A stretch of DNA of 64,000 nt from an uncultured Candidatus Saccharibacteria bacterium (GTDB taxonomy: Bacteria; Patescibacteriota; Doudnabacteria; UBA920). The stretch's first letter is position 1. The number at the start of each line of letters is the position of its first letter. Shown here in pieces: positions 33,058 to 61,123 of the stretch. Location: the NCBI GenBank assembly GCA_964436545.1, contig CAYTCJ010000006.1:4729-68728 (forward strand). Direction: 5' to 3'. Position numbers and translations under genes: made by a program. The notes under the pieces were generated by a model. That model did no database searches, was not told the DNA's origin, and worked only from the letters and a program-made list of their open reading frames with translations.

Positions 33058-33996
33058 TCACTGTTTGCTAAAAATTAAATTTTCAATTTTTTCGCCTTCT
33101 CTACCTAAAATCCCCAAATTTTTGCCATTAAAACTAGCCTTCACCATTCCGGCGTTACTCACCGACAAGGTCAGCTGATTAAACTGTTCAAACATAGCCG
33201 TTTGTCCCGCTGAGTAAACTTTCTTTACTTGAGCTTGACCCTCTAAGCTATAACCCAACTCCACATTGCCTAAAAATTCCAAATCCAATACGGTGCGATT
33301 AGTCTCCGCTCCCGATTCGCTATGCTTGCCTTGACCAATTACTGTAAGCTGTTTGGTCAAACTTCGCCTAAACCGATTGGTGGCCACAATCACCAATTCT
33401 TTGGGCCCGGCCGATAACCCCACATTGGTAAAAAATTTACCTTCGCTGTTTACAAACACCGGTTCATTATTTACCGTGACAGTCGCGCTCGGATCGGTTC
33501 GGCCTTCCACGGCAATAAAAGTTTTATCGGTGGCGGTAAGATTTTGTGGAGAGATAATTTCCAATAAAGGGGTTTGGGCGATCGCAAAAACTTGCCAAAT
33601 AATATAGATTAAAGTAAACGCAATAAACAACACGCTTACCCCAAGGGTAATAACTTTCGGCGTTAAAGTGAAATTTTCCCAAAATAAAAAACGTTTTTGA
33701 GCATGTTTATTTTTTGCTTGAATTATTTGCTGGCTAACGGTTTGTTCCAATTCATACTGATCAATTAACACTTGACTGTCTAACCCATAGACTTTGGCTA
33801 ATTTTTGCAAAAATCCTTTTACATAAACTTTGGCCGGCAAATGACCGTAATCGCCCTTTTCCAATAACATCAATGCCTTGGCCGGAATTCCGGTTTGTTT
33901 TACCAAATCCGAAATAGACAATTTAAAACTTTGCCGAACATTACATAAATATTCAGATAAAGTTTCTACTTTAATTTTTTGTTGTAGAAAAGCCAC
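33058..33996 (-). CDS. RodZ-like cytoskeleton protein (N-terminal HTH, single TM, C-terminal domain)
   Basis: HTH near the N-terminus, TM helix ~110-135. Confidence 0.6.
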   Translation of the reverse strand: MAFLQQKIKVETLSEYLCNVRQSFKLSISDLVKQTGIPAKALMLLEKGDYGHLPAKVYVKGFLQKLAKVYGLDSQVLIDQYELEQTVSQQIIQAKNKHAQKRFLFWENFTLTPKVITLGVSVLFIAFTLIYIIWQVFAIAQTPLLEIISPQNLTATDKTFIAVEGRTDPSATVTVNNEPVFVNSEGKFFTNVGLSAGPKELVIVATNRFRRSLTKQLTVIGQGKHSESGAETNRTVLDLEFLGNVELGYSLEGQAQVKKVYSAGQTAMFEQFNQLTLSVSNAGMVKASFNGKNLGILGREGEKIENLIFSKQ

Positions 33997-42770: not shown

Positions 42771-43961
42771 CTATAATTTATTAGATTTAAACTTAGATCC
42801 ATTTAAATTACTCAAAACGCTAGATTCAAAATACCGATTAGCTTGTCTGGTTTGTTGATGTTTTTCCTGAGCCAACTTAATTAAGCTATTCAACAATTCC
42901 GGTAAATCCACTCCGCTAGCTTGCCATAAATGATGATAAAGCGTACCGGGCAAAGGATTCACTTCGTTAGCAAAAAATTCTTGAGTTTGTCGGTTAATTA
43001 AAAAATCCACTCTGGCAATCCCGCTACACTCTAATAATTTATAAACCGCAATGGCTGTCTGTTTAATTTTTTCCGTCATTGCCTCACTTACCCTTGCAGG
43101 GATAACCACGCTCCTTTGGCTTTTGCCGGTTTGCGCCCCGCCATCGGTTAAATATTTATCTTCAAAGCTAAACAAATCCATACTATATAAAGACTCCTGA
43201 AGCTCCGAGGGTTTAACCTCCCTATTACCCATTAAACAACAAGTAACATCCATTAAATTTTCCACCACCTCCTCTACGACCACTTTTTCATCGTAATAAA
43301 AAGCTACTTCTAATTTTTGAACCAATTGCTGTTCGTCTTTCGCCTTACCAATCCCAATAGACGAACCCAAATGCGCCGGCTTCACCATAAGTGGAAACTT
43401 TAATGATTGGCTGATTTTCTGATGCACTGCTTGCTGATGTGTTTGCCAGTCATGTTTATTAAAATACACAAATTTAGTCGTGGGAATTCCGGCATCTCGC
43501 ATTAAAATTTTGGTCAAAGCTTTATCCATAGCAATGGCCGAGGCTGGCACCCCACAACCTACATACGGCACCCCTAACATTTCCAACATGCCTTGTATGG
43601 TGCCATCTTCCCCGTATGTTCCATGAAACGCCGGAAACGCCAAATCAATGGTAATGGTTTTTCCCAAGATGCCTTTTTTCTTAAACACCAACTTACCCAG
43701 AGACTCTTGCATATCCAAATAATATTCCGCGTATTGAGAATTTTCTTCAACTTTATTATTCGGATCCGCAAACATTTTTAAATTTCCCAATTCCTCCCCG
43801 AGCATCCATTTTCCGGCTTTGGAAATATACACCGGAACTACCGAATAGTTTAACCCCTTAAGGCCACCAATAATTAACTGGGCGGTAATTATGGAAATAT
43901 CATGTTCCACACTTCCGGAGCCAAAAAACACACCAATATTTTTGAATGAATTATGAGTCAT
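42771..43961 (-). CDS. ddl: D-alanine--D-alanine ligase
   Basis: ATP-grasp motifs; N-terminal GVFFGSGSVEHDISI... Confidence 0.85.
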   Translation of the reverse strand: MTHNSFKNIGVFFGSGSVEHDISIITAQLIIGGLKGLNYSVVPVYISKAGKWMLGEELGNLKMFADPNNKVEENSQYAEYYLDMQESLGKLVFKKKGILGKTITIDLAFPAFHGTYGEDGTIQGMLEMLGVPYVGCGVPASAIAMDKALTKILMRDAGIPTTKFVYFNKHDWQTHQQAVHQKISQSLKFPLMVKPAHLGSSIGIGKAKDEQQLVQKLEVAFYYDEKVVVEEVVENLMDVTCCLMGNREVKPSELQESLYSMDLFSFEDKYLTDGGAQTGKSQRSVVIPARVSEAMTEKIKQTAIAVYKLLECSGIARVDFLINRQTQEFFANEVNPLPGTLYHHLWQASGVDLPELLNSLIKLAQEKHQQTRQANRYFESSVLSNLNGSKFKSNKL

Positions 43962-44020: not shown

Positions 44021-45835
44021 TTATATATACTGGTCGCCCCAATCGTTTTGAAACAAAATAACATCATTCGGCTGTAAAAGATTTTTTAATTCCGCATGAG
44101 CTTGTTCTGCACTATTAAACCATATAATAATTGGTAAGTTGTAAGTTGTAAGTTGTAAGTTCTCTCTCTTGCTTAATTCATAATTCTTAATTCCTAATTC
44201 TATGTATCCAGTTACGCTATTCCTAATAAGTATAACCACATCTGCCACCTTTGCCAACTGCTTGCCAATCTCTAAATGGACTGTTTTTACTTCACTCCCT
44301 GTTTCCACCAACCCCGGAGTAATATAAATTTTTCTTCGGTTAGGAAACTGAGCCAAAGTTTTTATGGCTTCTTTGACCCCAACTGAATTCCCATTATACG
44401 CATCATCAATCACCAAAATATTTCCCGGTCTTAAAATAGGTTCTAAACGATGCTTCACAGGTTGAATTTTTTCTATACCTTGTTTGATTGCTTCGTTACT
44501 CATACCCAACTCTCTCGCTATGCTTATAGCGCAGTCCACATCTCCAAGTGCATACTCTCCAAGTAATTTTACAAAAATTTTCACTCCCTTTCCTTCTTCT
44601 CCTGAATTAAAGTTTCCTCTTTCTCCTTCTTCTCCTGAATTAAAGTCTCCTCTTTCTCCTTCCCGCCGTGAATTAGAGCTTTCTCTTTCTCCTTCTTTTT
44701 CTGAATTAAAGTTTCCTCTTTCTCTTTCTTCTCCTGAATTAGAGCTTTCTCTTTCTCCTTCCCCTCCTATATTAGTGTTGCCCCTCGCTTCTTCCCCCCC
44801 TATATTAGGGGGGGTTAGGGGGGGTATTTCCAATTCCCAACCTAATCTCACTGCATCAAACTTTGCATGTTTGATATTTGATATTTGATATTTGATATTT
44901 TTTTGCTTGGGTAAAATATAATTTTGATAATTCTCCACAACATTTTCATCGTCCCCATTTAATAAACAGAGTGCATCCGCTTTGGCATTTTGCACAATTT
45001 CAAAAATGGTTTGCGTAACTGCTTTTATACTGCCCATTCTTTCCAAATGCGCTTCGCTAATCCCTGTCACTACCGCCATATCCGGTTTCACCAAACTGCA
45101 AATGGCTTTTATGTCGCCTTTGTAGTGCTCCCCCATTTCGATAATAGCAATTTCAATATTTTCTTCTCCCTTTAGGGGAGAAGGTGCCTGCGGGGCAGAT
45201 GAGGGGTTGGGGGCATTAAAATTTTTCAACACCCACCTCGCTATCCCGACCGGCGTATTCACACTCTCCGGTGTGGCAAACACCTGAAACCTCAAACCCA
45301 AAACCGCTTTCAAAACTTCCTTCATAGTCGTCTTACCATAACTTCCGGCAATCCCAATAATCGACAGCTCTTTACGGGCTGTCGCCCCGGGCGAGTGCAT
45401 CCGAGACCCGAGATCCGGTGCCACAGTCAAACTTTGAATTTTTGATTTAGCCTTATAAATAATTACCTGTTTTAATAACCAATCCACTGGCCATAAAATT
45501 ACTATCCCGATTAAATAAAAAATAAAAAATAAAAAATAAAAAATTAACAAATAAACAAACCCTAAAAACCATAATTCATAATTCTTAATTCCTAATTCTG
45601 GCAAGCGGTCTAAAAACTTCCAGAAAATTAACCATGGCAGAGTTAGATAAAGCCCGATTGCCAATAACAAAATTAGGGTCGCTTTTCCTGTCCAGACTAA
45701 ACTCTTTCTCATGGGCGCCTTGGGTGGAAAATACCCTTTTTGCCGGAGTAACTTTAAATACCGTCCCAGCTCGTAATTTTCCAGCTGTAAAAGATAAAGT
45801 TGATATTTAATGATTTTTATAAGATTTACTAACAT
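44021..45835 (-). CDS. Mur ligase family protein (MurF-like by ddl adjacency) with atypical N-terminal TM extension, internal 13-aa tandem repeats and GC-hairpin insertions
   Basis: GIAGSYGKTTMKE P-loop, Mur ligase middle and C domains; N-terminal 150 aa hydrophobic; true start uncertain. Confidence 0.65.
   Translation of the reverse strand: MLVNLIKIIKYQLYLLQLENYELGRYLKLLRQKGYFPPKAPMRKSLVWTGKATLILLLAIGLYLTLPWLIFWKFLDRLPELGIKNYELWFLGFVYLLIFYFLFFIFYLIGIVILWPVDWLLKQVIIYKAKSKIQSLTVAPDLGSRMHSPGATARKELSIIGIAGSYGKTTMKEVLKAVLGLRFQVFATPESVNTPVGIARWVLKNFNAPNPSSAPQAPSPLKGEENIEIAIIEMGEHYKGDIKAICSLVKPDMAVVTGISEAHLERMGSIKAVTQTIFEIVQNAKADALCLLNGDDENVVENYQNYILPKQKNIKYQISNIKHAKFDAVRLGWELEIPPLTPPNIGGEEARGNTNIGGEGERESSNSGEERERGNFNSEKEGERESSNSRREGERGDFNSGEEGERGNFNSGEEGKGVKIFVKLLGEYALGDVDCAISIARELGMSNEAIKQGIEKIQPVKHRLEPILRPGNILVIDDAYNGNSVGVKEAIKTLAQFPNRRKIYITPGLVETGSEVKTVHLEIGKQLAKVADVVILIRNSVTGYIELGIKNYELSKRENLQLTTYNLPIIIWFNSAEQAHAELKNLLQPNDVILFQNDWGDQYI
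44105..44132. repeat. GTAAGTT x4 tandem heptamer inside the Mur ligase 3' region
   Basis: Read directly. Confidence 0.7.
44172..44203. repeat. 28-bp direct repeat TAATTCATAATTCTTAATTCCTAATTCT, copy 1 (copy 2 at 45568-45598); both inside the Mur ligase ORF, both encode LGIKNYEL
   Basis: Exact 28-mer identity read directly. Confidence 0.85.
44581..44830. repeat. about five tandem ~39-bp repeats encoding 13-aa GE(E/R)G.R..(N/S)(F/S)NS units, followed by C7/G7 hairpin CCCCCCCTATATTAGGGGGGG
   Basis: Read directly; in-frame in Mur ligase. Confidence 0.8.
45163..45183. repeat. family-B-like hairpin CTTCTCCC-ttta-GGGGAGAAG in-frame in Mur ligase (encodes SPLKGEE)
   Basis: 8-bp stem. Confidence 0.6.
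45568..45598. repeat. 28-bp direct repeat copy 2 (see 44172-44203)
   Basis: Exact identity. Confidence 0.85.
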
Positions 45836-47993: not shown

Positions 47994-48068
47994 TGGTATC
48001 CTCACCAGGAGTCGAACCTGGATCTAAACGTTAGGAGTGTTTTGTTCTATCCGTTGAACTATGAGGAC
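47994..48068 (-). tRNA. tRNA-Arg (anticodon CCT)
   Basis: D arm GTTCAACGGATAGAAC, anticodon loop CTCCTAA, T arm CAGGTTCGACTCCTG, encoded CCA. Confidence 0.8.
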
Positions 48069-48690
48069 AAATAATACTAGCAACTTGTTTATTTATAGCA
48101 AAGATAGTCTTTAATATCAAACCACTTTTTTTTACTCTAACTCTACACATACCATATTTTAACTTTCCTATTTTTTTGCCTTTTAAAATATTAATACTTA
48201 CCCTCTCTTTTAAATTTAATCCGGTAACTAATGACCAGAAATTTATGCAATTGTCTTGATTCAAATCCTCATAAACCCTAATTGATACTTTAAAATCACT
48301 GTTAGACACATTAAAATCTTTACGCAAAATTTGCATAAAAGTCTCAACCATCACCGGGTCTGTGTTAGTAAAACTTAAATCTTTCTTGTTGCCTTCCGCC
48401 CAATACAGCGCACAAGCGACCAAGATCCTATCTTTAGCATCTAGAGTGGAAATCAAACGCTTAGCCTTTTCATGTGCGATAACCCAAGCCTTTTCTGATA
48501 TAATCCTACTAGGTTTCCTTCGTTCCAGCCAACGATTTAAAAATTCAGGCAATATCTCAACCATTCTTGAATATCTTAATGCTGTTGATTTTGATATCCC
48601 TAAAATACGACTAATCTCCGGAATACTATGACCGGTCTTCCTTAATTCAAAAATTTTATCTTTTGTTTCTATCTTTAGTAGTCTTGGCAT
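48031..48690 (-). CDS. HTH-domain protein abutting tRNA-Arg, possibly a LAGLIDADG-like endonuclease fold
   Basis: N-terminal HTH GHSIPEISRILGISKSTALRY; weak LAGLIDADG-like ALYWAEGNK; last ~12 codons overlap the tRNA so the true stop is uncertain. Confidence 0.4.
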   Translation of the reverse strand: MPRLLKIETKDKIFELRKTGHSIPEISRILGISKSTALRYSRMVEILPEFLNRWLERRKPSRIISEKAWVIAHEKAKRLISTLDAKDRILVACALYWAEGNKKDLSFTNTDPVMVETFMQILRKDFNVSNSDFKVSIRVYEDLNQDNCINFWSLVTGLNLKERVSINILKGKKIGKLKYGMCRVRVKKSGLILKTIFAINKQVASIICPHSSTDRTKHS

Positions 48691-48732
48691 AAGTCAATCT
48701 TAACAAATAATTTAAAATCGTTCCGGTATTAT

Positions 48733-50214
48733 ATGATTATATCTAAAAGAATTAATCTAATTAATCTCTGCCGAATATTTTTTTTATTATTTCTATTCTC
48801 AATCTTTTTTCCTATTCGTTATGTCTTCCCTACCTCGGAAAGCTATATTACTGGGCTTTATTCAGACTTTACTACTTTTTCCTTATATTTAAGCGATATA
48901 TTCTTATTTATTGCTTTTTTCTTTATTTTGTGGTATAATTATAAATATTTTATTGAATTCATTGTTAATTGTAAATTGCTAGTTGCTTTATGGATTTGGC
49001 TTATATTAGCCATTTTTATTTTTAATCCGCATATCTCAGGTTTAAATTTTTGGTCATTTTTTAAGTTTTTTGAACTCATTGTTGTTGCATATGGAACAAT
49101 TAAGGCAATTTTCAATTATCAATTTTCAATTTCGAAATCTTGGTTTTTAGGCATGTTCATATTATTAGGCACGGTTCAATCAATAATTGGGCTAATGCAA
49201 TTTCTTAAACAAGCGCCAATTGGCCTAAGTAAATTAGGAGAGCAACAAATTTACCCTTATTTAAGCGGAGTAGCCAAAATAGTTTCAGGTGGAACAATCT
49301 ATATTCGTGCCTATGGCACCTTTCCTCATCCTAATATTTTGAGTGTTTTTTTGTTAGTTGCAATATTTTTGCTTATTCATCTTTCGTTAAATCAGCAAAA
49401 ACCTAATTTAACAAGCAACTTATTCTCTAAGCACTACTCTCTCATCACTAAAATTATCCTTAATTTAGCGCTTTTTATAAATATCCTTGGTTTGACTGTC
49501 ACTTTTTCACGTGGAGCATTCTTAGCTTTAGGGTTAGGATTATTGGTATTTTTTGGACTACTGGCTTATTGGCTCAAAAAGCCTGTCATTCTGAACTCGT
49601 TTCAGAACCTAGATTCCAGATCGGTCCGCCCACTGGCAGACAGCATGACAAAAAACCTAAAAGTAGTTGCCATTAATATACTTTTAGCTTTAGCTGTGGC
49701 ATTTTTAATTTTCAAACCTTTTCTCCTTTCACGTGCCACAATTTCCGATCAAGCTACAATAGAAAGAAAAATTTACAACCAAACAGCCAGAAACATGATT
49801 AAAGCTAATCCGGTTATTGGCAAGGGAGCAGGGGAGAGTCTGCTTCATATGGAACAATATAGCCCAGTTAAACTAAAACCGTGGCAAATTCAGCCGATTC
49901 ATAACTATTTTTTGCTATCTGCCTCAGAGATTGGAATATTTGGGTCTCTAATTTTAATTTTGGTATTTCTCTCTCATCTGTTTGGAATTTGGAATTTAAA
50001 AATTTGGGATTTATTTAAAAATTGGAAATTAGAAATTAGAAATTTAAAAACCAGCTTTTACCGCCTAACTCTTTTTACCATCTTAATATGTTTTATAATA
50101 TTAATGCTCTTTGACCATTACTTTTATACCATTCAATCTACCCAAATGCTCTTATGGATGACTTTGGGAATAATTGCATCCACAAAAGAAAATGAAATTA
50201 ATCAAAATCCTTGA
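48733..50214 (+). CDS. O-antigen ligase/polymerase-like (Wzy_C) polytopic membrane protein
   Basis: About 12 TM helices, periplasmic loop with SRGAF.ALGLG motif. Confidence 0.6.
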   Translation: MIISKRINLINLCRIFFLLFLFSIFFPIRYVFPTSESYITGLYSDFTTFSLYLSDIFLFIAFFFILWYNYKYFIEFIVNCKLLVALWIWLILAIFIFNPHISGLNFWSFFKFFELIVVAYGTIKAIFNYQFSISKSWFLGMFILLGTVQSIIGLMQFLKQAPIGLSKLGEQQIYPYLSGVAKIVSGGTIYIRAYGTFPHPNILSVFLLVAIFLLIHLSLNQQKPNLTSNLFSKHYSLITKIILNLALFINILGLTVTFSRGAFLALGLGLLVFFGLLAYWLKKPVILNSFQNLDSRSVRPLADSMTKNLKVVAINILLALAVAFLIFKPFLLSRATISDQATIERKIYNQTARNMIKANPVIGKGAGESLLHMEQYSPVKLKPWQIQPIHNYFLLSASEIGIFGSLILILVFLSHLFGIWNLKIWDLFKNWKLEIRNLKTSFYRLTLFTILICFIILMLFDHYFYTIQSTQMLLWMTLGIIASTKENEINQNP

Positions 50215-50617
50215 GGGCACACGAACAGACGCCCTCATAATAGCAATTTTAATATTTTATGGATTTTATTCGCATCCACATTTTAATTTGTGGACAATCT
50301 TAAGTATTTTTTGTTTTACCACAGGTGCTGGACTAGGTTTAATGGCTCGGCATCAATTAGGTAAAGCATTTTCCGTTAAACCAAAAGCCACCATATTGGT
50401 AAAACATGGGGTCTACGCCAAAATTAAGCATCCAATATATTTGGCCGGAATGATCATTAACTTGGGCTTTTGTTTTCTTTATCAACACTGGATTATTTAT
50501 ATAATTTCATTTTTCTTTTTAATTTTACAAATCTTTAGAGCAACGAAGGAAGAAAAAATCTTAACCAATACCTTTGGACAAGAGTATATAACTTACAAAA
50601 AATCAACTTGGTTTTAA
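50174..50617 (+). CDS. isoprenylcysteine carboxyl methyltransferase (ICMT)/PEMT-family membrane methyltransferase
   Basis: LVKHGVYAKIKHPIYLAG motif. Confidence 0.7.
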   Translation: MHPQKKMKLIKILEGTRTDALIIAILIFYGFYSHPHFNLWTILSIFCFTTGAGLGLMARHQLGKAFSVKPKATILVKHGVYAKIKHPIYLAGMIINLGFCFLYQHWIIYIISFFFLILQIFRATKEEKILTNTFGQEYITYKKSTWF

Positions 50618-50702
50618 AAATCCCCATCCGCCAACTGGCGGAAGGGGATTGAATTTTATAAAACATCCGTGTTATCTGTGATTGTCTGTGTATCTGTGAT
50701 AT

Positions 50703-51170
50703 TTACTTATGATACTGCTTCCCAGCTAAAATTGCACAAGCTCTATATATCTGTTCTTCCAATACTACTCTTGCCAAATTATGAGGAAAAGTAAGCGGGG
50801 AGAGAGAAACCGAATAATTACTGTATTGCTTTAAAGATTCGTGAAGTCCTACACCACTGCCAATTACAAACACCAGTTCTTTACCCAAACCTCCGGTGCG
50901 TTGTAAAAATTCCGCAAAAACCGAACTATCTCTTAAAGTGCCTTTTTCTTCCAAAAGAATTACCAGCGCATCGGCCGGTAAATTTTTTATAATACTTTCC
51001 GCTTCCTTTTCTTTTACTCTCTCAATGGAATCATTTTTCCGATACGGTTCTTCGGGCAATTCCACTATTTTAACCTTGGCAAAAGGGGAGAGACGTTTTA
51101 AAAATTCTTTTTCCAATTCCAAATACGCATTTTCTTTAAACTTCCCTAAACAAATAATTCTTATCTTGAG
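50703..51170 (-). CDS. rlmH: 23S rRNA (pseudouridine1915-N3)-methyltransferase RlmH
   Basis: SPOUT RlmH full-length similarity starting MLKIRIICLGK. Confidence 0.85.
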   Translation of the reverse strand, partial: LKIRIICLGKFKENAYLELEKEFLKRLSPFAKVKIVELPEEPYRKNDSIERVKEKEAESIIKNLPADALVILLEEKGTLRDSSVFAEFLQRTGGLGKELVFVIGSGVGLHESLKQYSNYSVSLSPLTFPHNLARVVLEEQIYRACAILAGKQYHK

Positions 51171-51180
51171 CATAAACCAA

Positions 51181-51229
51181 TTATACAAAAAATAAGGGGG
51201 TCGTCGCAAGCTATCTTGCAACGACCCCG
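51181..51229 (-). terminator. strong rho-independent terminator (GC stem plus T-run) for the 64-aa high-GC ORF
   Basis: Minus strand GGGTCGTTGCAAGATAGCTTGCGACGACCCCC followed by TTATTTTTTG. Confidence 0.75.
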
Positions 51230-51248
51230 ACGAATCCTCACCAGTTTA

Positions 51249-51443
51249 TCATCGCCTAAGATCAGATTTGAACAAAACTTCTTCATTCATGTCGTCGCCG
51301 ACATGAATGCTTTTTACGACACGCGCAGAGCGCGCATCTACGAGCTCCTTTGCACGTTTAGCATTTTCTGCCACGACGATGGCAGTACCGTGTGTGGTAA
51401 CCCACATGGCACCGCCCGTAATTTCCATAACAAACAGTTTCAT
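51249..51443 (-). CDS. small (64 aa) protein encoded with conspicuously high-GC codon usage; function unknown
   Basis: Local GC far above the window background; own terminator; AT-rich promoter region upstream. Confidence 0.5.
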   Translation of the reverse strand: MKLFVMEITGGAMWVTTHGTAIVVAENAKRAKELVDARSARVVKSIHVGDDMNEEVLFKSDLRR

Positions 51444-51581
51444 AAAACCTCCTTACTTTTAAAATTTACTTGTTTACCAAAATATGGTAAACTTATTTTG
51501 AATAATTATTTAATATATATTATTTTTCTTTTATTTAAGCCCAAATTTATGAAATTTTTCGTCAAAAATAATTGACAATTT

Positions 51582-52331
51582 ATGAAAAATAACATTTTAT
51601 CGTGGTTGAAATCTTCGGGACTGGACGAACAAAGGGCAAGTATTTTTTTAGCTCTTTTGAGTTTAGGAGAATCTACTGCCAAACAGATTTCTGAAAAAGT
51701 TAAGCTGGGTAGAACAGCGGTTTACGACAATTTAAGAATTTTAGAAGAAAAAGGTTATGTAAAATCTATAAGGCTTGGTAAAAGGCAAAAATTTGTTCCC
51801 ACACACCCCAACGAACTTTACAAACAATACGAAAGCAAAAAACAACAGTTAAAAGAACTGCTTCCGGATTTTTTGGCATTATACGCAGAAAAAAATTCTA
51901 AACCTTTTGCGCAATTATTTGAGGGCCCATACGCAGCAAGAGAAATTTACGAAGATATATTAAGAGTTGAAGAGAAAGAATATGTTTACTTTTCACCATC
52001 TGAATTAACTCTACAAGTGGTCAATCGTAAATTTATAGAAGACTGGATAAAACGTAGGGTAGCAACAGGCATACGCTCTCGTTCTTTACGAGTAAAATCT
52101 AAAACAGTGCCCAATGCCCCGATTTTTAACGAAGAAACTACATATCTTAGACAAATTCGATATTTAAACGGCTTTGTGGATTTAAAAGCAGCTATTTATA
52201 TTTACGGAAATAATATTGGGGTAATTTCCACCATAAGAGAAAACAGTGCGTTTATTATACACTCGCATGACTTAGCATTTAGTCTAAAACAAATTTTTGA
52301 ATTTATGTGGCAATTATCTTTAAAATCATAG
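51582..52331 (+). CDS. TrmB-family transcriptional regulator
   Basis: N-terminal TrmB HTH (ASIFLALLSLGESTAKQISEKVKLGRTAVYDNLRILEEKGYV). Confidence 0.75.
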   Translation: MKNNILSWLKSSGLDEQRASIFLALLSLGESTAKQISEKVKLGRTAVYDNLRILEEKGYVKSIRLGKRQKFVPTHPNELYKQYESKKQQLKELLPDFLALYAEKNSKPFAQLFEGPYAAREIYEDILRVEEKEYVYFSPSELTLQVVNRKFIEDWIKRRVATGIRSRSLRVKSKTVPNAPIFNEETTYLRQIRYLNGFVDLKAAIYIYGNNIGVISTIRENSAFIIHSHDLAFSLKQIFEFMWQLSLKS

Positions 52332-52382
52332 AGACTTTACACATAAAACTTATTTATATAAAATTATTCAGTGTAAACCTTT

Positions 52383-52433
52383 GGGCCTGTAGTAAAGTGG
52401 TCCACCAAAGGCGGATAAATATTACACGGCATT
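52383..52433 (+). pseudogene. scrambled tRNA-Ala remnants: internally deleted Ala(GGC) minihelix GGGCCTGTAGTAAAGTGGTCCACCA plus a 14-nt exact piece of Ala(CGC)
   Basis: Manual comparison with intact tRNAs at 47113-47186 and 52521-52594. Confidence 0.6.
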
Positions 52434-52520
52434 TTCACCCCGTTACTCAAAATTCAACTAGGGCTCATGGTCCAGTGGTAAGAAGTGGCATTTTTATCTC
52501 GTATTAAATTTTAATTTTCT

Positions 52521-52594
52521 GGGGGTATAGTAAAGTGGTATTACACGGCATTCGCATTGCCGGGGCTCGGGTTCGATTCCCGATACCTCCACCA
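52521..52594 (+). tRNA. tRNA-Ala (anticodon CGC) with G3:U70
   Basis: Anticodon stem-loop CGGCA-TTCGCAT-TGCCG, T arm TCGGGTTCGATTCCCGA, encoded CCA. Confidence 0.8.
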
Positions 52595-52691
52595 TAAAAA
52601 TTTTAATACTGGAATGCATTGCCGACTTGTCCGACGAAGCTTTAGCGAAGTCAGAGGCGGGGGTTCGACTGCAGTCCTCCGTAGCTTTCTT

Positions 52692-52773
52692 GTCCACCAT
52701 AGCTTTCTCGTCCGATGAAGTCACTTAGGTGACGAAGTTGGAAGCGAAGGATGGATTCCCCCCAGGTCCACCA
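52692..52773 (+). other. additional tRNA-Ala(GGC) 3'-end fragments (GTCCACCA at 52692-52699; GATTCCCCCCAGGTCCACCA at 52754-52773)
   Basis: GTCCACCA occurs three times within 400 bp; last copy matches 20 nt of the Ala(GGC) 3' end. Confidence 0.6.
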
Positions 52774-52783
52774 AATTTACTTA

Positions 52784-53494
52784 ATGAAAAATATTACTCA
52801 CCAAAAACAAAAAAAACTTTGGAACCTAGAACACCAAAAGCCTTTTATGCTTTTACCTATGGACTCACAGACACCCTCAAAAGGTGTCGTTTTTTTTTAT
52901 AACTGGTTAAAGAAAAACTATAAACAGAAAAGCCTCAAAGGCTTAGAAATGGGCTCGGGTAAAGGTAGGAACTCTATTTGGCTAACTCAGCAAGGGGTTA
53001 ATATGACTGGATTTGATTTTTCCAAAATTGCAATTAATCACGCAAAAAATAGAATGAAAACTTTAAACTTAAAACACCATATAAAATTTTTGGTTGGGGA
53101 TGCGACTAAAACTTGGCCGTTCAAAAATAATCAATTTGACTTTGGAATTGACTGCTTTGCTTCAACTGACATAGAAACATCTAAAGGCAGAGATTTTGCC
53201 AACAAAGAGTTTTGGCGGGTATTAAAACCACAGGGCGTATTATTTCTGTATTTACTTTCTACTGAAGACCAGTTTCATCGGCAAATGATCCAAACATCAC
53301 CCGCTAACGAACCCAATGCTTTTTTGCATCCCAAGACCGGTAAATATGAAAAGGTGTTTAACCAAAATGAAATAAAAAAACTCTATAAAGACTGGAAATT
53401 TATTCAAATCAAACGGATTACCAAAACCGCCACCTTTTTTGGCAAAAAGTATAACTGTAAACATTTTTGGATAATTCTTGAAAAAACAAAATAA
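52784..53494 (+). CDS. class I SAM-dependent methyltransferase (ORF-track start 52751 lies inside a tRNA fragment, so the 52784 ATG is preferred)
   Basis: Motif I LEMGSGKGRNSIWL, motif post-I GFDFS. Confidence 0.7.
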   Translation: MKNITHQKQKKLWNLEHQKPFMLLPMDSQTPSKGVVFFYNWLKKNYKQKSLKGLEMGSGKGRNSIWLTQQGVNMTGFDFSKIAINHAKNRMKTLNLKHHIKFLVGDATKTWPFKNNQFDFGIDCFASTDIETSKGRDFANKEFWRVLKPQGVLFLYLLSTEDQFHRQMIQTSPANEPNAFLHPKTGKYEKVFNQNEIKKLYKDWKFIQIKRITKTATFFGKKYNCKHFWIILEKTK

Positions 53495-55313: not shown

Positions 55314-55558
55314 TTTAAATCTTGCTGTTAAATCATTCTCATATTCTCAAGAATATGAGAATGATTTATTTTATTAAAACCAACCCAAACTCTCTATGGT
55401 CTTATTCGCGCGAATAATACCATAGAGGCTTCAACAATAATTTTTTACAACCCCGTCCTTTACTAAAGGCAGGATTATTTTTTTATTTGACTAAAAACAT
55501 AAAGGCTGGTAAGTTAGCAAAAGTCGGTAAATTTCAAAACGAAAAGGAGGCCAAAAAA

Positions 55559-56671
55559 ATGGCCATGAAAATTGACGGTTTGGAAATCGAATACACAAAT
55601 CACCGCATGGTTACCCCTTTACAAATCGGCGACAAGCCCCCGATGAAAGACATCACCCGTCTGGTGGTTAACGCCACCGTGGACGGAGTGCGAGGAGTCG
55701 GAGAAGCCACTCTTGCCGATGTCTGGGCAGGGGCAGACTTGGAGGAGATGAAGGCTTACGCCTCAGCTCTGCAAGCCCGAATGCGAGGAATGGATACGGA
55801 AAACCCCCTTGAATTATATAAGAAAATGGTGCCGACCATGCTAGCTGACTCGGACATCAACAAAGTTGCACAATTGATCGTCTGGGCGGGGTTCTACAAC
55901 GCACTGTGGGATGCGTACGGCAAAATGCACGAGAAGCATCCCTGCCTCATGCTGGGCGAAGTTGATAAGAGATACGCTGGCATTTTTCTCCCTATGCCTC
56001 GCAAGAAGGTGTACTTGGAGTACACCTATGGGGGCGCAAGCAAATTACTTGGTGAGAGGGGACTGCTTGCGGCAAAGCACCAACGAGGCTACCGGGTAGT
56101 CAAAGTGAAGTGCGGAGGGGACCCCGAAGAGGACTTCAAGAAAATGATGGCGATCTACGCAGCCACCGGCTGCCAACTGTGGCCGGACTTCAACGGATCG
56201 GGAACACCTGAGGGAGTCAAACAACTCTGCAACGCCCTCAAGGCGTGCCTCCGTCAGGGAGAATTGCTCGCCGTGGAGCAACCCTTCTCGGTGGCGGAGA
56301 CCTTCAAAATCGACATCCACGGCATGGGCCACGTTCCCTTTTTCTTAGACGAGTCCGCGGTCATGCCTGAGGACATCCTTGCCGCCAAAGCGCTGGGCTA
56401 CCTGGGAATAGTGGTGAAGGCAGACAAGGGCGGTCTGTCCCACGTGGCAGAGATGGTGCGGGTTGCCAAAGAGCACAGAATGTTGGTGTCGGTCCAGGAC
56501 CTGACCAGTGACCCCTGGCCGTCGCTCGGAATCGCCGCCTACCTCCGCGATCTCCACGGACACATAGCCGAGATGAACCAAATCGAGCTTCTGGTGACCC
56601 CGAAGCCCGTCGTTATCCAGAACGGGTGCGTTGACACAAGCCAGCTGACAGGTCCAGGGTTCTACCCGTAG
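55559..56671 (+). CDS. enolase-superfamily (MR/MLE-like) enzyme encoded with foreign high-GC codon usage; start at the ATG 8 nt after AAGGAGG
   Basis: KVKCG (KxK), metal ligands D..E(QP)..D(ES), capping domain; GC clearly above window background. Confidence 0.7.
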   Translation: MAMKIDGLEIEYTNHRMVTPLQIGDKPPMKDITRLVVNATVDGVRGVGEATLADVWAGADLEEMKAYASALQARMRGMDTENPLELYKKMVPTMLADSDINKVAQLIVWAGFYNALWDAYGKMHEKHPCLMLGEVDKRYAGIFLPMPRKKVYLEYTYGGASKLLGERGLLAAKHQRGYRVVKVKCGGDPEEDFKKMMAIYAATGCQLWPDFNGSGTPEGVKQLCNALKACLRQGELLAVEQPFSVAETFKIDIHGMGHVPFFLDESAVMPEDILAAKALGYLGIVVKADKGGLSHVAEMVRVAKEHRMLVSVQDLTSDPWPSLGIAAYLRDLHGHIAEMNQIELLVTPKPVVIQNGCVDTSQLTGPGFYP

Positions 56672-56774
56672 AATAGAAAACACCTTTGCCCTAAAATAAA
56701 AAAACAACAATCAAGGGGCAGGGTGTAAAATGGCCAGTGGCGGGCTGAAAGGAGGCAGTTTGCCACACAAACAA

Positions 56775-56817
56775 AACGGCGCTTGGAGTGCGAACTCTCG
56801 AGCGCCGTTATTTTTTT
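56775..56817 (+). terminator. rho-independent terminator closing the high-GC segment
   Basis: AACGGCGCT...AGCGCCGTT stem followed by T8. Confidence 0.7.
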
Positions 56818-56858
56818 AATCTCTTTCTCTATCTATCTCTTTCTCTAACTCTCTCCCC

Positions 56859-57428
56859 CTACAACCACCTCTGCAAATATTTACCCGCCACTCGCTCTAC
56901 GAGTAAAAAGAAAACTATCATAACAAAAGGCAAAACATCTACAAACCGAGAATAGTGCACAAATTTAAATAAATACTCACTAAACGAATAACTCAAAAGG
57001 CCAATAACGCTTAACCAAAACACGACGGAAATTATTGAGGCGCGAACAAATTTTTGCATAGGTAAATTTAACATTCCGGTGCGAATTAATATGGCTCTAT
57101 GCACGCCGTAGATAAATTTGGAAACTACAAAAATATGGGTAGTTTTATTTTGAATATGTGGGTCAAACCGACTGGCAATTTTATTTACCCAAGCATTAAT
57201 TTTGGGAAAGCGGGTCAAGCGCTTGCCCGTGTAATACAATAACCACTGTTCAAGCATGGCACCAAACAGCACGCAGAGCAGAGAGGGCACAGCCGGCACC
57301 GAACCCACGGAAATTAAAAAAATCACCGTTAAAGCAAACAACAAACCTTCCACTAACATTCCGAGCACAAAAAAAGTGTAAACTAAGACGTCTAAATTGT
57401 GAGCTAATAAATAATTAAAAATTTCCAT
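56859..57428 (-). CDS. DedA/VTT-family membrane protein
   Basis: TM pattern and conserved G..R motifs. Confidence 0.6.
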   Translation of the reverse strand: MEIFNYLLAHNLDVLVYTFFVLGMLVEGLLFALTVIFLISVGSVPAVPSLLCVLFGAMLEQWLLYYTGKRLTRFPKINAWVNKIASRFDPHIQNKTTHIFVVSKFIYGVHRAILIRTGMLNLPMQKFVRASIISVVFWLSVIGLLSYSFSEYLFKFVHYSRFVDVLPFVMIVFFLLVERVAGKYLQRWL

Positions 57429-57441
57429 TGATCAAAATAAT

Positions 57442-58965
57442 TTAATTAACATCTACCACTAATTCAATTTCCGCGCCTAACTGTTTTAACCGGCTGGCTA
57501 AATCTTCGTAACCTCGGTTAATGGAATAAACATTTCTTAAAATCGATTCACCCTGAGCCGAAAGCATACCAATGAGAATTATAGCCGCTGGCCTTAAAGC
57601 CGGAGGACACACCATATCTGCTCCTTTTAGTTCAGTTTTACCGTCTACATACACTCGGTGAGGATCGGCTAAAATAATTTTCGCTCTCAACTTATTTAAT
57701 TCCGTATAGTAGATAGCTCGGTTTTCATACACCCAATCGTGAATCAAAGTTTGGCCTTGGCTTTGCGTGGCTATGGGCACAAAAAATGGCAAGTTATCTA
57801 TATTAATACCCAAATTAGAGGGTAGAGGATGAAGTTTCTCTTCTAAAGCCACAAGCTTAGAGGGCAAAGTTTGTATATCCACTAAATTCATCCAACCATT
57901 GGTGGATTTATAGGTCTTTAACACTTTATATTTAAAGCCCATTTTTTCCAGTTTGAGTAATTCTAAACGTAAAAAATCTATGGGACATCCTTCTATAACC
58001 ATACCGGAATGAGTGGTAATGGCAATCGATAAAAACATCATGGCTTCAATGGGATCTTCGCCAATATTATATTCCACTCGCTTATTTATTTCCCTGACTC
58101 CTCTAATTTTTAGCGTTTGACTGCCCAATCCTTCTATTTTTACACCCAATTTTATTAAGAACTGGCATAAATCTTGGACCATATAATTAGCCGAGGCTAA
58201 TTGAATGGTAGTTTCGCCCACAATTTTGGAGGCCGTAATTAATGCGTTCTCCGTAACCGTATCGCCGGTTTCATAAAGCACTATGTCTGCAGGGTGTAAC
58301 TCCTTAGCCGTAATTTTATACTCATCATGAATGGTTTGAATCTTTACACCTAATTTTTCCAAAGCAAACATATGGGGCCTAACTGTTCTCGCTCCCAATT
58401 TACAACCACCGCTTAACGGCCAAGAAAAAGTTTTAAATAAATGCGCCAAAGGCCCAATCATCATTAAGGCAGCTCTGGTTTTAGTGACGGCTAATCGGTC
58501 AACTTTTTTTGGATCTAAAGTTTCGCATTTAATTTCCAAATCATTCGGCCCGAGCCAATTAACCTCTGCTCCCAAACTGGTTAACACCTCTATCATTCTA
58601 AACACTTCTTCAATTTTGGGCACACCCCGCAAAATGGTTTTGCCCGCATTTAACAAACTCGCGGACATAATGGCAATCGCGGAATTTTTTGAAGCATTGA
58701 CCTTAATATTACCGTGTAATTTTTTACCCCCCTGGATTTTAAAATTCAGTGCTTGCCCGCCTAAGGTGATGATTTCACGGTTTAAAACTTTACTCAGCTT
58801 TAACAGTAAGGCCGTAGAAAAATTTTGTTCGCCCTTTTCCATTCTAGCCACGGCCGATTGGCTGGTTTTTAGTCGTTTGGCAAATTCTTGTTGTGTCCAA
58901 GCCTTTTGTTCCCGCAAACTACTAATTAATTGGGCTAACTTCAAGTTTTTAGTCTTTATTTCCAT
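57442..58965 (-). CDS. murA: UDP-N-acetylglucosamine 1-carboxyvinyltransferase MurA with N-terminal XRE-type HTH domain fusion
   Basis: HTH LAQLISSLREQKAWTQQEFAKRLKTSQSAVARMEKGE; MurA body NIKVNASKNSAIAIMSASLL with active-site Cys in SGGCKLGARTV. Confidence 0.85.
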   Translation of the reverse strand: MEIKTKNLKLAQLISSLREQKAWTQQEFAKRLKTSQSAVARMEKGEQNFSTALLLKLSKVLNREIITLGGQALNFKIQGGKKLHGNIKVNASKNSAIAIMSASLLNAGKTILRGVPKIEEVFRMIEVLTSLGAEVNWLGPNDLEIKCETLDPKKVDRLAVTKTRAALMMIGPLAHLFKTFSWPLSGGCKLGARTVRPHMFALEKLGVKIQTIHDEYKITAKELHPADIVLYETGDTVTENALITASKIVGETTIQLASANYMVQDLCQFLIKLGVKIEGLGSQTLKIRGVREINKRVEYNIGEDPIEAMMFLSIAITTHSGMVIEGCPIDFLRLELLKLEKMGFKYKVLKTYKSTNGWMNLVDIQTLPSKLVALEEKLHPLPSNLGINIDNLPFFVPIATQSQGQTLIHDWVYENRAIYYTELNKLRAKIILADPHRVYVDGKTELKGADMVCPPALRPAAIILIGMLSAQGESILRNVYSINRGYEDLASRLKQLGAEIELVVDVN

Positions 58966-59269
58966 AAATTTATATCAAATATGATATAAAAAGTGTATCA
59001 TATTTGCTAAGGCAAGTCAAAACTTACTTAAAATATGGAAGTAAACCACTGTTCTAAAAACTGGGTTTGGCGATTATAAAAAAATAATCCGAGCAATAAA
59101 CCCAAAATTACCGTATTCACAAACAACAAGTGCCATAAGTCGCTTTTGGTATGTGTTTTGTTAGCTTCGTTGATTTCCATAATTCAAATTAGTGCTTAAT
59201 AATTTTGTTCAGTATACCATAATTTTTTGGTTTGTGCATAACCATAAACAGTGCTAAAATATTTCAGCT

Positions 59270-59758
59270 ATGCACACTTTTAACCTCACAACTTGGTTAA
59301 TTTTAACCGGTCTCATTAGCGGTTTATGCCTGCTGGGTTTAGGTTATATGTTTTGGAAATTTCAAAGCACCCAGAGAAAACTTAACTCCTTTTTACTGGG
59401 CAAAAGCGGAGCAGACTTAGAAAGTCTCATTCTGGCCATTCAAGAAAATCTCAAAAGTATTGAAGCCGAAAATCTTACCGCTTCCAATGAAATCAAAGAG
59501 CTCCAACAACTAAGCCGATTGGCAATTCAGAAAATCGGTCTGGTAAGATACAGTCCCTTTGCCGACGGGGGAGGCAACTATAGTTTTTCCTTAGCTTTGT
59601 TAAACCATACGCAATCGGGCATTCTAATTACCAACATGTATGGTCGGCAACAAAGTCGAGTCTATGTAAAAGAAATCTTGCAGGGCAAAAGCGATATCGT
59701 TTTAACCCAAGAAGAACAAACTGCCATTCATAACGCACAATATTATATCAATCATTAA
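59270..59758 (+). CDS. DUF4446-family membrane protein
   Basis: N-terminal TM; GLVRYSPFADGGGNYSFSLALLN motif typical of DUF4446. Confidence 0.65.
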   Translation: MHTFNLTTWLILTGLISGLCLLGLGYMFWKFQSTQRKLNSFLLGKSGADLESLILAIQENLKSIEAENLTASNEIKELQQLSRLAIQKIGLVRYSPFADGGGNYSFSLALLNHTQSGILITNMYGRQQSRVYVKEILQGKSDIVLTQEEQTAIHNAQYYINH

Positions 59759-59770
59759 GTATAAAAATTT

Positions 59771-60178
59771 ATGGAAAAAGATCTCTCCAACTTTGAAGGT
59801 CCGGCAGAAACCATTGTCGGACCCAGCGTAAAAATTCAAGGCGATTTAAACAGCGAAGGCAACATTAACATAGAAGGCCAAGTTGCCGGTAAAGTGGCCA
59901 CCAGCCAAAGCGTGTTTGTTAAAGCCGGAGCTAAAATTACCGCAGATATTTTGGCGGTTAATGCCATTATTGGGGGCGAAGTCTTGGGCAATATTAAAAT
60001 TTCCGGCCACTTAATTATGCAATCTTCCGCCAAAATTAACGGCGATATTTCTTGCAGTATTTTAAGAGTGGAAGATGGCGCCCAATTTACCGGCAAGTGC
60101 AATATGAAAGGCGCTACAAACGGCAATGGTAAAAAAACTTCTGCCCATAACGGCGTTGAACTGGAAACCGAAGAATAA
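59771..60178 (+). CDS. bactofilin (polymer-forming cytoskeletal protein)
   Basis: Beta-helical repeat pattern I.G.V.G.V...V......A.I.GEV.G.I. Confidence 0.8.
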   Translation: MEKDLSNFEGPAETIVGPSVKIQGDLNSEGNINIEGQVAGKVATSQSVFVKAGAKITADILAVNAIIGGEVLGNIKISGHLIMQSSAKINGDISCSILRVEDGAQFTGKCNMKGATNGNGKKTSAHNGVELETEE

Positions 60179-60280
60179 AATAATTGAGCAAAATTGACAT
60201 AAATGACAAAAGTGAACAAAAACTGATGCACTTAAATTTTTGGCATTTTTATTTATTTATTAATTTTTGTCATTACTATT

Positions 60281-61123
60281 GTGTATTATTATATTTTTGA
60301 CCAAGGGAATTTACCCGCAGACAAATACGAAGCTCTCCAAACCCAAACCACTGGTCTATTAGCTGAATTTAAAATTGCCGGCGAAACCGGTCGTGTCACG
60401 CCCTTAAGGTCCATAGCCGACCTAATTGACACTGCCAGCCAAAGAGGCGCCAAAACTTTAATCGCCTGTGGCTCCGACGACACTTTTAACCAAATGCTGG
60501 TGGCCTTAAAGGGTAGAGATTTTGTATTGGGTTTTATTCCGTTTGATCCGCAATCATTTTTAGCCAAAATTTTAGGCTTGGATTCCGTCTTTACCGGAGT
60601 AAAAACCATTGCCGGCCGAAGAATTGAAAAAATTGATTTGGCTAAAATCGCCGACAACTACTTTTTAAGTTTTTTAGAGTTTGGCGTCATGAGTAAAGAC
60701 ATTAAAACCGCGGGGTTTTTTTCCGGCTTAAAACTGCTTTCCGGAGAAGTTAAAAATATTCAAATTAAAATCGATAACGCCTATGTGCTCAAACTGGAAG
60801 CCTTGGGAGGTATGTTAATTAATGCTCGGGCCACCACCTCCAAGAACCGAGCAATTGCCAACCCCACAGACAGCCATTTAGATTTGCTGATTTTAGAAAA
60901 ACTTTCTAAAACTGAAATCCTCAGATATCGCAATCTCATTGCTCAGGGCTTTTTAGAACAAGTGCCCAAAACCACGGTTATTAAGTGTAGAAAAGTGGAA
61001 TTTTTAGAACCCCGAGGTATGAACTTAACCATCTTAGGCCGGATTGTAGCTAAATTACCCAGCACAGTAGAAATTATTCCCCAGCGCCTAAGACTTATTG
61101 TCGGAAAAAACCGAACCTTTTAA
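60281..61123 (+). CDS. diacylglycerol-kinase-catalytic-domain (YegS/DAGK_cat-like) lipid kinase homolog with degenerate GGDG motif (GSDD)
   Basis: LIACGSDDTFNQML. Confidence 0.55.
   Translation: MYYYIFDQGNLPADKYEALQTQTTGLLAEFKIAGETGRVTPLRSIADLIDTASQRGAKTLIACGSDDTFNQMLVALKGRDFVLGFIPFDPQSFLAKILGLDSVFTGVKTIAGRRIEKIDLAKIADNYFLSFLEFGVMSKDIKTAGFFSGLKLLSGEVKNIQIKIDNAYVLKLEALGGMLINARATTSKNRAIANPTDSHLDLLILEKLSKTEILRYRNLIAQGFLEQVPKTTVIKCRKVEFLEPRGMNLTILGRIVAKLPSTVEIIPQRLRLIVGKNRTF

Follow-up and report, generated by a model that had tools for sequence, protein, structure and literature searches.

A helix-turn-helix domain fused to MurA and a palindrome in its promoter suggest an autoregulated cell-wall enzyme in Patescibacteria

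Introduction

In a 64,000-nucleotide stretch of contig CAYTCJ010000006.1 (GenBank assembly GCA_964436545.1), referred to here as the window, the gene for the cell-wall enzyme MurA encodes an additional N-terminal helix-turn-helix (HTH) domain of the XRE/Cro-C1 type. This HTH-MurA fusion is real and old, and a palindrome stands in front of the fused gene in the window and in nearly all of the related loci that we compared. The most probable reading of these observations is that HTH-MurA is a bifunctional protein, an enzyme and also an autorepressor that would act through the palindrome in its own promoter.

The first committed step in the synthesis of peptidoglycan is catalyzed by MurA, the enzyme that fosfomycin targets. 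In model bacteria, its known control is mainly by proteolysis and feedback inhibition. HTH-MurA appears to be an enzyme that serves as its own transcription factor, and it occurs in a large, mostly uncultured radiation with small genomes and few regulators. Gene regulation in Patescibacteria is almost wholly unworked, and HTH-MurA offers one protein and one 16-bp site to work with. Full-text literature searches returned no description of the fusion, in agreement with a first-pass annotation of the window that was aware of no characterized example, and public annotations name the fused proteins simply MurA.

Results

An HTH domain and a complete MurA domain share one open reading frame

The gene and its parts are placed in the window as follows (aa, amino acids; pLDDT, predicted local distance difference test).

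57442..58965, minus strand: HTH-MurA coding sequence, a single stop-free frame of 507 aa plus stop
58762..58941, minus strand: XRE/Cro-C1 HTH domain, aa 9-68 (Pfam HTH_3 at aa 16-65)
58834..58866, minus strand: putative recognition helix TSQSAVARMEK, aa 34-44 (near-invariant in 81 sequences)
58738..58782, minus strand: flexible linker, aa 62-76 (lowest conservation, low pLDDT)
57457..58737, minus strand: MurA (UDP-N-acetylglucosamine (UDP-GlcNAc) 1-carboxyvinyltransferase) domain, aa 77-503 (profiles, PDB matches, fold)
58402..58404, minus strand: codon for Cys188, the catalytic residue (Cys115 in E. coli; alignment)

The first-pass annotation, made from the sequence alone, had described a Cro/C1-type HTH followed by a complete MurA with its catalytic Cys, and profile searches bear out both halves. 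The Pfam model HTH_3 (PF01381) matches aa 16-65 with an E-value of 5.6e-12 and 45.9 bits against a cutoff of 23, which places the domain in the XRE/Cro-C1 type; the peptide quoted in that annotation, QQEFAKRLKTSQSAVARMEKGE, lies at aa 25-46. The EPSP_synthase model (PF00275) matches aa 77-491 over profile positions 1-415 of 417 (E 8e-45), and the catalytic Cys is residue 188. The same annotation had also stated that the frame contains neither an internal stop nor an internal start. The first part holds, and the second does not, as internal ATG codons exist at M42 and M100. However, none of the codons between aa 56 and aa 99 is ATG, GTG or TTG, so an HTH-less MurA cannot arise by internal initiation at the domain border.

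The structure prediction proposed for the full-length protein gives the same layout. An AlphaFold2 model built from 55 relatives (mean pLDDT 87, predicted template modeling score 0.83) consists of an N-terminal bundle of four helices (residues 2-20, 25-32, 36-43 and 51-61) of the helix-turn-helix kind, a low-confidence linker (pLDDT below 50 at residues 66-71) and a MurA fold. Because confidence in the linker is low, the packing of the two domains is not readable from this single-chain model.

The fusion is conserved across Patescibacteria, which answers positively the survey of orthologs that had been proposed as a check. A GTDB scan with one genome per species found 364 stretches that encode relatives, and the best 80 species representatives were fetched as loci (56-95% identity to the window protein). 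Both domains lie in one open frame, covered by a single BLAST alignment to the query, in all 80. Furthermore, PF01381 and PF00275 occur together in 120 of the 120 best listed database relatives (63-76% identity, 502-535 aa), which were drawn from NCBI, JGI, ENA and Logan assemblies. The named members among these 120 are Patescibacteria (Doudna-, Lipton- and Parcubacteria), and the taxon labels of many third-party assemblies, such as 'Saccharibacteria' or 'Gammaproteobacteria', are unreliable. In a search of 1.8 billion cluster representatives, fused relatives were found down to 32% identity, together with some HTH-less relatives at 45-62% identity.

Selection appears to act on both domains. 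In a MAFFT alignment of 81 sequences, the mean frequency of the top residue per column is 0.73 in the HTH, 0.75 in the enzyme and 0.49 in the linker; the linker, about 12 aa long, is of conserved length, and the predicted recognition helix with the following turn, TSQSAVARMEKGEQN, is almost invariant. Between the window gene and its closest relative, L001, synonymous and non-synonymous codon differences number 26:5 in the HTH and 82:21 in the rest. Judged by these comparisons, HTH and enzyme are equally constrained.

A homology search with the HTH alone returned 18 short proteins, mostly on contigs below 1 kb, which are probably gene fragments; the two matches that were checked on longer contigs turned out to be split HTH/MurA genes. 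In one further protein, P0128 (529 aa), an N-terminal stretch of about 76 aa resembles a decayed HTH (GLTLEEISIKVGITLEEQLGMEQ) that Pfam no longer recognizes. P0128 may be an intermediate in the loss of the DNA-binding domain.

A conserved palindrome lies at the promoter of the fused gene

Upstream of the start codon, three elements of the window are relevant.

58972..58987, no strand assigned: palindromic predicted operator ATATCATATTTGATAT (minus-strand reading), 6 nt upstream of the ATG
58992..59020, minus strand: sigma-70-like promoter TTGACT-17 nt-TACACT (consensus scan), ending 4 nt before the palindrome
59010..58981, minus strand: second candidate promoter TTAGCA-18-TATCAT, whose -10 hexamer falls within the palindrome's left arm

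Read toward the gene, the order is TTGACT-17 nt-TACACT, tttt, ATATCATATTTGATAT, aaattt and ATG, which puts the palindrome after the -10 hexamer and before the start codon. It is a 16-mer in which ATATCA and TGATAT form an inverted repeat. When ATATCA-N4-TGATAT is searched at up to 1 mismatch, the 64-kb window contains one match, the one before HTH-murA. Taken by itself this match is weak, as 15 of 100 shuffled sequences give at least one, and the significance of the palindrome comes from the comparison across loci.

In that comparison, the search for an upstream palindromic operator that the first-pass annotation had recommended was positive. A copy of the palindrome stands 17-184 bp before the start codon in 78 of the 80 related loci, and the window has it too; the consensus is TATATCA(T/C)AT(A/G)TGATATA over 16-18 bp. 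L059, one of the two remaining loci, is truncated by the contig end with a half site still visible, and L072 has none. In the motif-anchored loci, the 16-bp core carries 1.0-2.0 bits per position, with C5, A8, T9, G12, A15 and T16 invariant, and the flanks are mostly below 0.3 bits apart from weak -35 and -10 positions. Changes in one arm are matched in the other: T/A at positions 4/13 (ATATCA/TGATAT) is found 59 times and G/C (ATAGCA/TGCTAT) 15 times, with 5 mixed cases. The half-site centers are 10 bp apart and hence on one face of the helix, which is the geometry of a dimeric Cro-like repressor and what would be expected of a cognate site for an XRE/Cro-C1 HTH.

In these loci, the palindrome is also specific to this gene. 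The exact degenerate pattern matched 50 loci, once each and always just before HTH-murA, and no further matches were found across the 80 loci at up to 2 mismatches. This distribution, together with the single occurrence in the window, rules out a general promoter element. It also bears on two roles that had been suggested for a DNA-binding domain on MurA. Coupling to transcriptional autoregulation is supported by the fusion and the promoter-adjacent palindrome. Nucleoid localization is not, since a single specific site points to a specific operator rather than to general tethering to DNA.

How is the palindrome placed relative to the promoter? It lies on or beside promoter-like hexamers in the 78 loci and in the window, and in most relatives it occupies the -35/-10 spacer and overlaps the -10. 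In about half of the loci, a TTGCAA-like -35 element lies just upstream of it and a -10 element lies on or just after its right arm. Under this promoter model, the flanking -35 and -10 elements would make the site untranscribed promoter DNA, and a protein bound at these promoter-like hexamers should hinder RNA polymerase. An RNA hairpin or terminator is an unlikely identity for the element, as the hairpin is weak (-3 to -5 kcal/mol), has no T-run and, in most loci, falls in the -35/-10 spacer. As a separate observation, in about 35 of 79 loci (among them L007, L012-L015, L017, L029, L030, L032, L037, L046 and L047) the start codon follows the palindrome's first base by 25-29 nt and the predicted -10 by about 4-8 nt, which suggests that many such murA mRNAs are leaderless.

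The palindrome follows the fused HTH

Three lines of comparison tie the fused HTH to the palindrome. First, the two co-vary. The substitution S35T in the recognition helix occurs in 14 of the 15 loci with an ATAGCA/TGCTAT palindrome (T4 to G), whereas none of the 59 loci with ATATCA/TGATAT has it, and M42I shows a similar pattern. In a neighbor-joining tree of the MurA domain, the pairing of T35 with the G-type palindrome appears in three branches, namely the main clade, L040 and L011. This co-variation suggests that the fused HTH is the binder.

Second, the palindrome is lost with the HTH. It is found nowhere in the loci of four HTH-less relatives (P0121, P0123, P0125 and P0127), and it is kept at both of the two rare loci on metagenome contigs in which HTH and MurA are split into separate genes (P0367, a 402-aa open reading frame, ORF; P0361, a 381-aa ORF). 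Among the HTH-less relatives, the closest is P0121 (62% identity); mreB lies divergently upstream of it (L208 3-248, minus strand), and the 46-bp intergenic region (L208 249-294) retains only a half-site-like TGCTATACT.

Third, HTH domains of this subtype are found near the palindrome. The only one in the window is that of MurA. A metagenome scan for the exact 18-mer gave at least 120 stretches, of which 80 loci (502 kb) were examined; in 30 of the 80, an HTH of this subtype lies no more than 700 bp from the 18-mer (18 HTH-MurA and 12 small stand-alone XRE proteins), and none was found farther than 700 bp away in the 502 kb.

The MurA domain looks active

The window protein passes the curated MurA subfamily model NF006873 of NCBIfam (325.8 bits, cutoff 297). 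Its best PDB sequence matches are all MurA, beginning at about aa 70-77 of the query, with a GGC motif opposite the catalytic Cys, and the predicted fold superimposes on solved MurA structures with a target template modeling score of about 0.9 (Foldseek against PDB). No solved MurA chain among the PDB sequence and Foldseek matches carries an HTH or any other additional DNA-binding domain.

Equivalents of K22, N23, R91, C115, R120, D231, D305, R331, R371 and R397 are invariant in all 81 sequences. The numbering is provisional and follows an E. coli MurA sequence of the expected length, 419 aa, which aligns well with the family; the alignment of the Cys is also visible, independently of that sequence, against PDB 6q03. 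The enzyme domain thus looks active, and the sequence scores suggest that the window MurA is from a divergent Patescibacteria lineage. No second murA was found in the 64-kb window or adjoining HTH-murA in the 80 related loci, and the window contains no murB.

Canonical MurA, as known from E. coli, Enterobacter cloacae and C. difficile (PDB 1uae, 6q03), has the same two-domain EPSP-synthase fold and shares with HTH-MurA the Cys loop GGC.(L/I)G.R and the Lys/Arg/Asp set, at about 28-29% identity. The N-terminal HTH extension of about 75 aa is found in HTH-MurA alone. In addition, the fused family departs from canonical MurA at the D369 position, which is Pro, and at 162-164, where GDT replaces the SVG motif (E. 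coli numbering).

A related clade keeps the HTH and the palindrome but has lost the catalytic residues

One clade of relatives (P0130, P0271-P0275, P0129 and P0140) retains the HTH (TSQSAVARIEKGEQNLT) and lacks the Cys loop and the equivalents of R91, R371 and R397. New conserved residues, His and Trp, occupy positions 371 and 398. Three of its genes lie in mur/ddl gene clusters on independent contigs.

L081 10001-11518: dead-clade gene P0274
L082 10001-11536: dead-clade gene P0271
L084 9975-11477: dead-clade gene P0130

At each of these loci, the dead gene stands head-to-head with an HTH-less, Cys-containing murA, which is followed by murB, and Mur ligase and Ddl genes lie downstream. The palindrome is located within the shared 30-70 bp intergenic gap, with the divergent murA-murB operon on one side and the dead gene and ligase genes on the other. 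L084 has a perfect copy, preceded closely by TTGACA; the copy in L081 carries 1 mismatch, and that in L082 is a variant that keeps the symmetry. The partner MurA shares 27-29% identity with the fused family, which is about the distance of E. coli MurA; this rules out a recent duplicate of the fused gene and indicates a different lineage. The dead-clade proteins are probably pure regulators, and they are probably mislabelled as MurA enzymes in public databases.

A model of autoregulation and the points that weigh against it

The reading that we favor takes these features together. A dimer of HTH-MurA would bind TATATCA-N4-TGATATA in its own promoter, and the bound protein would block RNA polymerase at the murA promoter. 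Transcription of murA, and in at least one clade of a divergent murB, would then depend on how much MurA is present, and the predicted outcome is homeostatic control of the first committed step or steps of peptidoglycan precursor synthesis. For the murB part, the relevant loci form one clade (a subset of L037-L080), in which murB is divergent from HTH-murA with the palindrome in between (20 of the 80 loci; start codons at most about 90 bp apart in 18 of these 20). In this arrangement, the first two committed steps would share one operator. A divergent murB is also seen at L086 (1597-2439), again across a very short gap that contains the palindrome.

DNA binding, dimerization, the sign of the regulation and enzyme activity are all predictions for HTH-MurA, and several points speak against the model or narrow it. 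MurA is generally regarded as a monomer, whereas the model needs a dimer. Matches to promoter hexamers in the region are no more numerous than in shuffled controls. In a Doudnabacteria-like clade (L002-L006, L026 and L027), the -35 box comes after the palindrome, and a degenerate second site is found at the start codon; regulation there could be activation, or looping with the second site. The co-variation of S35T with the palindrome rests on an unbootstrapped tree without phylogenetic correction and has exceptions, namely L056 (S35 with a G-type operator) and L043 and L052 (hybrid operators). The 18-mer alone is not diagnostic, as 50 of the 80 exact-18-mer metagenome loci have no recognizable HTH nearby; these look like unrelated AT-rich occurrences. 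Finally, on the enzyme side, the window protein scores 319.4 bits against the cutoff of 392.7 of the strict equivalog model TIGR01072, and the D369 equivalent is Pro in 78 of the 81 sequences and Ser in 3, so that normal MurA kinetics cannot be assumed.

A more elaborate version of the model is possible but tentative. HTH-MurA might be a metabolite-gated trigger enzyme, in which the conformation or bound ligand of the MurA domain controls dimerization or operator binding. Flux through the opening step of peptidoglycan synthesis would then directly govern murA and murB transcription in much of the Patescibacteria, as a cell-wall feedback loop contained in one protein. Candidate gating states are the open form, the UDP-GlcNAc-closed form and the tight 'dormant' complex with UDP-N-acetylmuramic acid and the phosphoenolpyruvate adduct. 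Ligand modulation of DNA binding is hinted at by the strong closure that canonical MurA undergoes upon ligand binding, and by the dead clade, which keeps a MurA-like fold with a remodelled, conserved pocket. Under metabolite gating, the dead clade would be the same switch after the enzymatic role had passed to another MurA. At the level of sequence, HTH-MurA has two hallmarks of a trigger enzyme: an enzyme and a DNA-binding domain in one polypeptide, and a predicted operator in the promoter of its own gene or pathway.

It is unlikely that the MurA-like domain is mainly a module for ligand sensing or dimerization while the real MurA of the cell is encoded elsewhere. Such an arrangement is suggested by the dead clade with its adjoining Cys-containing murA-murB operon, and it would fit the low TIGR01072 score and the Pro at the D369 position in a genome viewed through only 64 kb. 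But the ten key residues invariant in 81 of 81 sequences are unexpected for a pseudoenzyme and contrast with the dead clade, NF006873 is passed, and neither the window nor the gene next to HTH-murA in the 80 loci provides a second murA.

Somewhat less credible again is the idea that the palindrome is bound by another factor, or is a lineage-specific promoter element, and that the fused HTH acts elsewhere. The right arm does coincide with an extended -10-like TGATATAAT in many loci, and the small XRE proteins with the same helix in metagenomes could act in trans. However, the left arm is as strictly conserved as the right and the arms change symmetrically; the motif precedes no other gene in the related loci; and the palindrome vanishes without the HTH and follows the HTH into the dead clade. 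The absence of any other HTH of the subtype from the window and the co-variation with S35T also argue for the fused HTH as the binder.

The HTH and its operator probably come from an antitoxin

Where did the HTH come from? Among NCBIfam HTH models, those that match the window protein best describe antitoxin families, and none reaches its cutoff. The stand-alone XRE proteins near the 18-mer carry the same helix, for example LKTSQSAVARMESGKQN in L130, and several of their genes come second behind Gp49/HigB-like toxins. The toxin-antitoxin operons and stand-alone XRE genes preceded by the palindrome are the following.

L113 5232-5610
L117 3381-3791
L140 ~1500-2211
L143
L156
L159
L130 ~5900-6167

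HigA-type antitoxins of type II systems (Gp49/HigB-HigA-like) have the same HTH subtype, with helices of the form T[ST]QS[AN][VI]ARME.G.QN, and their operons have the same 18-bp palindrome directly upstream, as at HTH-murA. Unlike HTH-MurA, these antitoxins are about 75-130 aa long, stand alone, are paired with a toxin and have no enzyme domain. The same helix with the same palindrome in two unrelated gene contexts suggests that HTH and operator were recruited together, probably from a HigA-type antitoxin. No other gene family recurs beside the 18-mer in the metagenome loci. With the dead clade, the antitoxin-type HTH forms a natural series, in which a toxin-antitoxin part would have joined an enzyme whose catalysis was later lost.

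An antitoxin-like HTH might also serve as a protein-protein module, either tethering MurA to MreB like the HTH of RodZ or neutralizing a toxin like HigA, and we consider this very improbable. XRE-type HTHs act as MreB-binding modules in RodZ, the closest relatives of this HTH are antitoxins, and one HTH-less relative has mreB divergently upstream. Against these points, the conserved palindrome and its co-variation with the recognition helix would be left unexplained, and no toxin gene (Gp49/HigB or RelE-like) adjoins the window gene, whose neighbors are a DedA/VTT gene, a 50-aa ORF and DUF4446. A RodZ-like HTH in particular is ruled out, as no HTH_25 (PF13413) match was found at E-values up to 0.1 and the window encodes a separate RodZ at 33058-33996.

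There is next to no chance that the fusion is an artefact of assembly, frameshift or gene calling that joined neighboring genes: the two rare split loci exist, but as the first-pass annotation had maintained, the single frame is real, being found in all 80 species representatives and 120 listed relatives from several sequencing projects, with a linker of conserved length.

Comparison with known enzyme-regulators

The principle of an enzyme fused to a repressor is known. BirA, the biotin protein ligase and bio repressor of E. coli, has an N-terminal HTH-type domain linked to the enzyme, and its dimer binds a palindromic operator that overlaps the promoter of the pathway. Enzyme and regulator are thus combined in one polypeptide, as proposed for HTH-MurA. 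BirA differs in its winged HTH and its unrelated enzyme fold, and its corepressor, biotinoyl-AMP, and its dimerization have been established experimentally. Furthermore, the main predicted target of HTH-MurA is its own gene, unlike that of BirA.

BirA, NadR and PutA are listed as trigger enzymes (PMC5397151). A comparable case is RbkR, an archaeal riboflavin kinase with an N-terminal winged HTH that is found phylum-wide and whose operators, upstream of pathway genes, were predicted by comparative genomics (PMC5397151). RbkR retains its catalytic residues, has secondarily lost the DNA-binding domain in some lineages, and has been shown experimentally to bind DNA, to have kinase activity and to respond to the effectors CTP and FMN (PMC5397151). 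Its secondary losses of the DNA-binding domain mirror the HTH-less relatives of MurA. RbkR is archaeal, has a MarR-type winged HTH and serves cofactor metabolism, whereas HTH-MurA is bacterial, has an XRE HTH, serves the cell wall and is known from sequence alone.

Compared with these systems, the components, the pathway, the taxon-wide distribution, the operator, the antitoxin origin and the pseudoenzyme offshoot of HTH-MurA appear to be new. If the proposed regulation is true, cell-wall synthesis joins biotin, NAD, proline and riboflavin among the pathways with enzyme-repressor fusions.

Neighboring genes and other features of the window

The following features surround the gene or lie elsewhere in the window.

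56859..57428, minus strand: DedA/VTT-domain membrane protein gene, 13 nt downstream of the murA stop
59028-59180, minus strand: ORF of 50 aa that includes a hydrophobic segment and lies between the murA promoter and the divergent DUF4446 gene
59270-61123, plus strand: cluster of DUF4446, bactofilin and DAGK/YegS-like kinase, divergent and upstream of murA
33058-33996, minus strand: RodZ homologue with a Glucodextran_B-like middle domain
42771-43961, minus strand: D-Ala-D-Ala ligase
44021-45835, minus strand: Mur-ligase-family protein, unusually long (604 aa)
55487-56671, plus strand: enolase-superfamily (MR_MLE_C) ORF, with many long overlapping ORFs in alternative frames

No synteny is common to the whole HTH-MurA family in the 80 loci, and the palindrome was not found upstream of the RodZ, D-Ala-D-Ala ligase or Mur-ligase-family genes of the window. 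The DedA gene is probably co-transcribed with HTH-murA; it follows HTH-murA in only 3 of the 80 related loci (L002, L008 and L011). DedA proteins have been linked to the recycling of undecaprenyl-phosphate, and the pairing would be a second link to the cell wall if this role applies.

On the upstream side, the 50-aa ORF has no Pfam match but is conserved in L001, L003, L008 and L011 (tblastn), and it may encode a real small membrane protein. The DUF4446-bactofilin-DAGK cluster adjoins HTH-murA in 7 loci (L001, L003-L006, L008 and L011) and puts a cytoskeletal gene beside a cell-wall gene.

Two features concern the composition of the window. The G+C content is 0.455 at 56001-58000, compared with about 0.38 elsewhere, and the enolase-superfamily segment may have been horizontally acquired. 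Up to about 48 kb, the genes are nearly all on the minus strand, with a GC skew of about -0.2; from about 48.7 kb, plus-strand genes are in the majority and the skew climbs towards 0. This change around 48000-53000 may mark a replication origin or terminus, or a strand-switch region.

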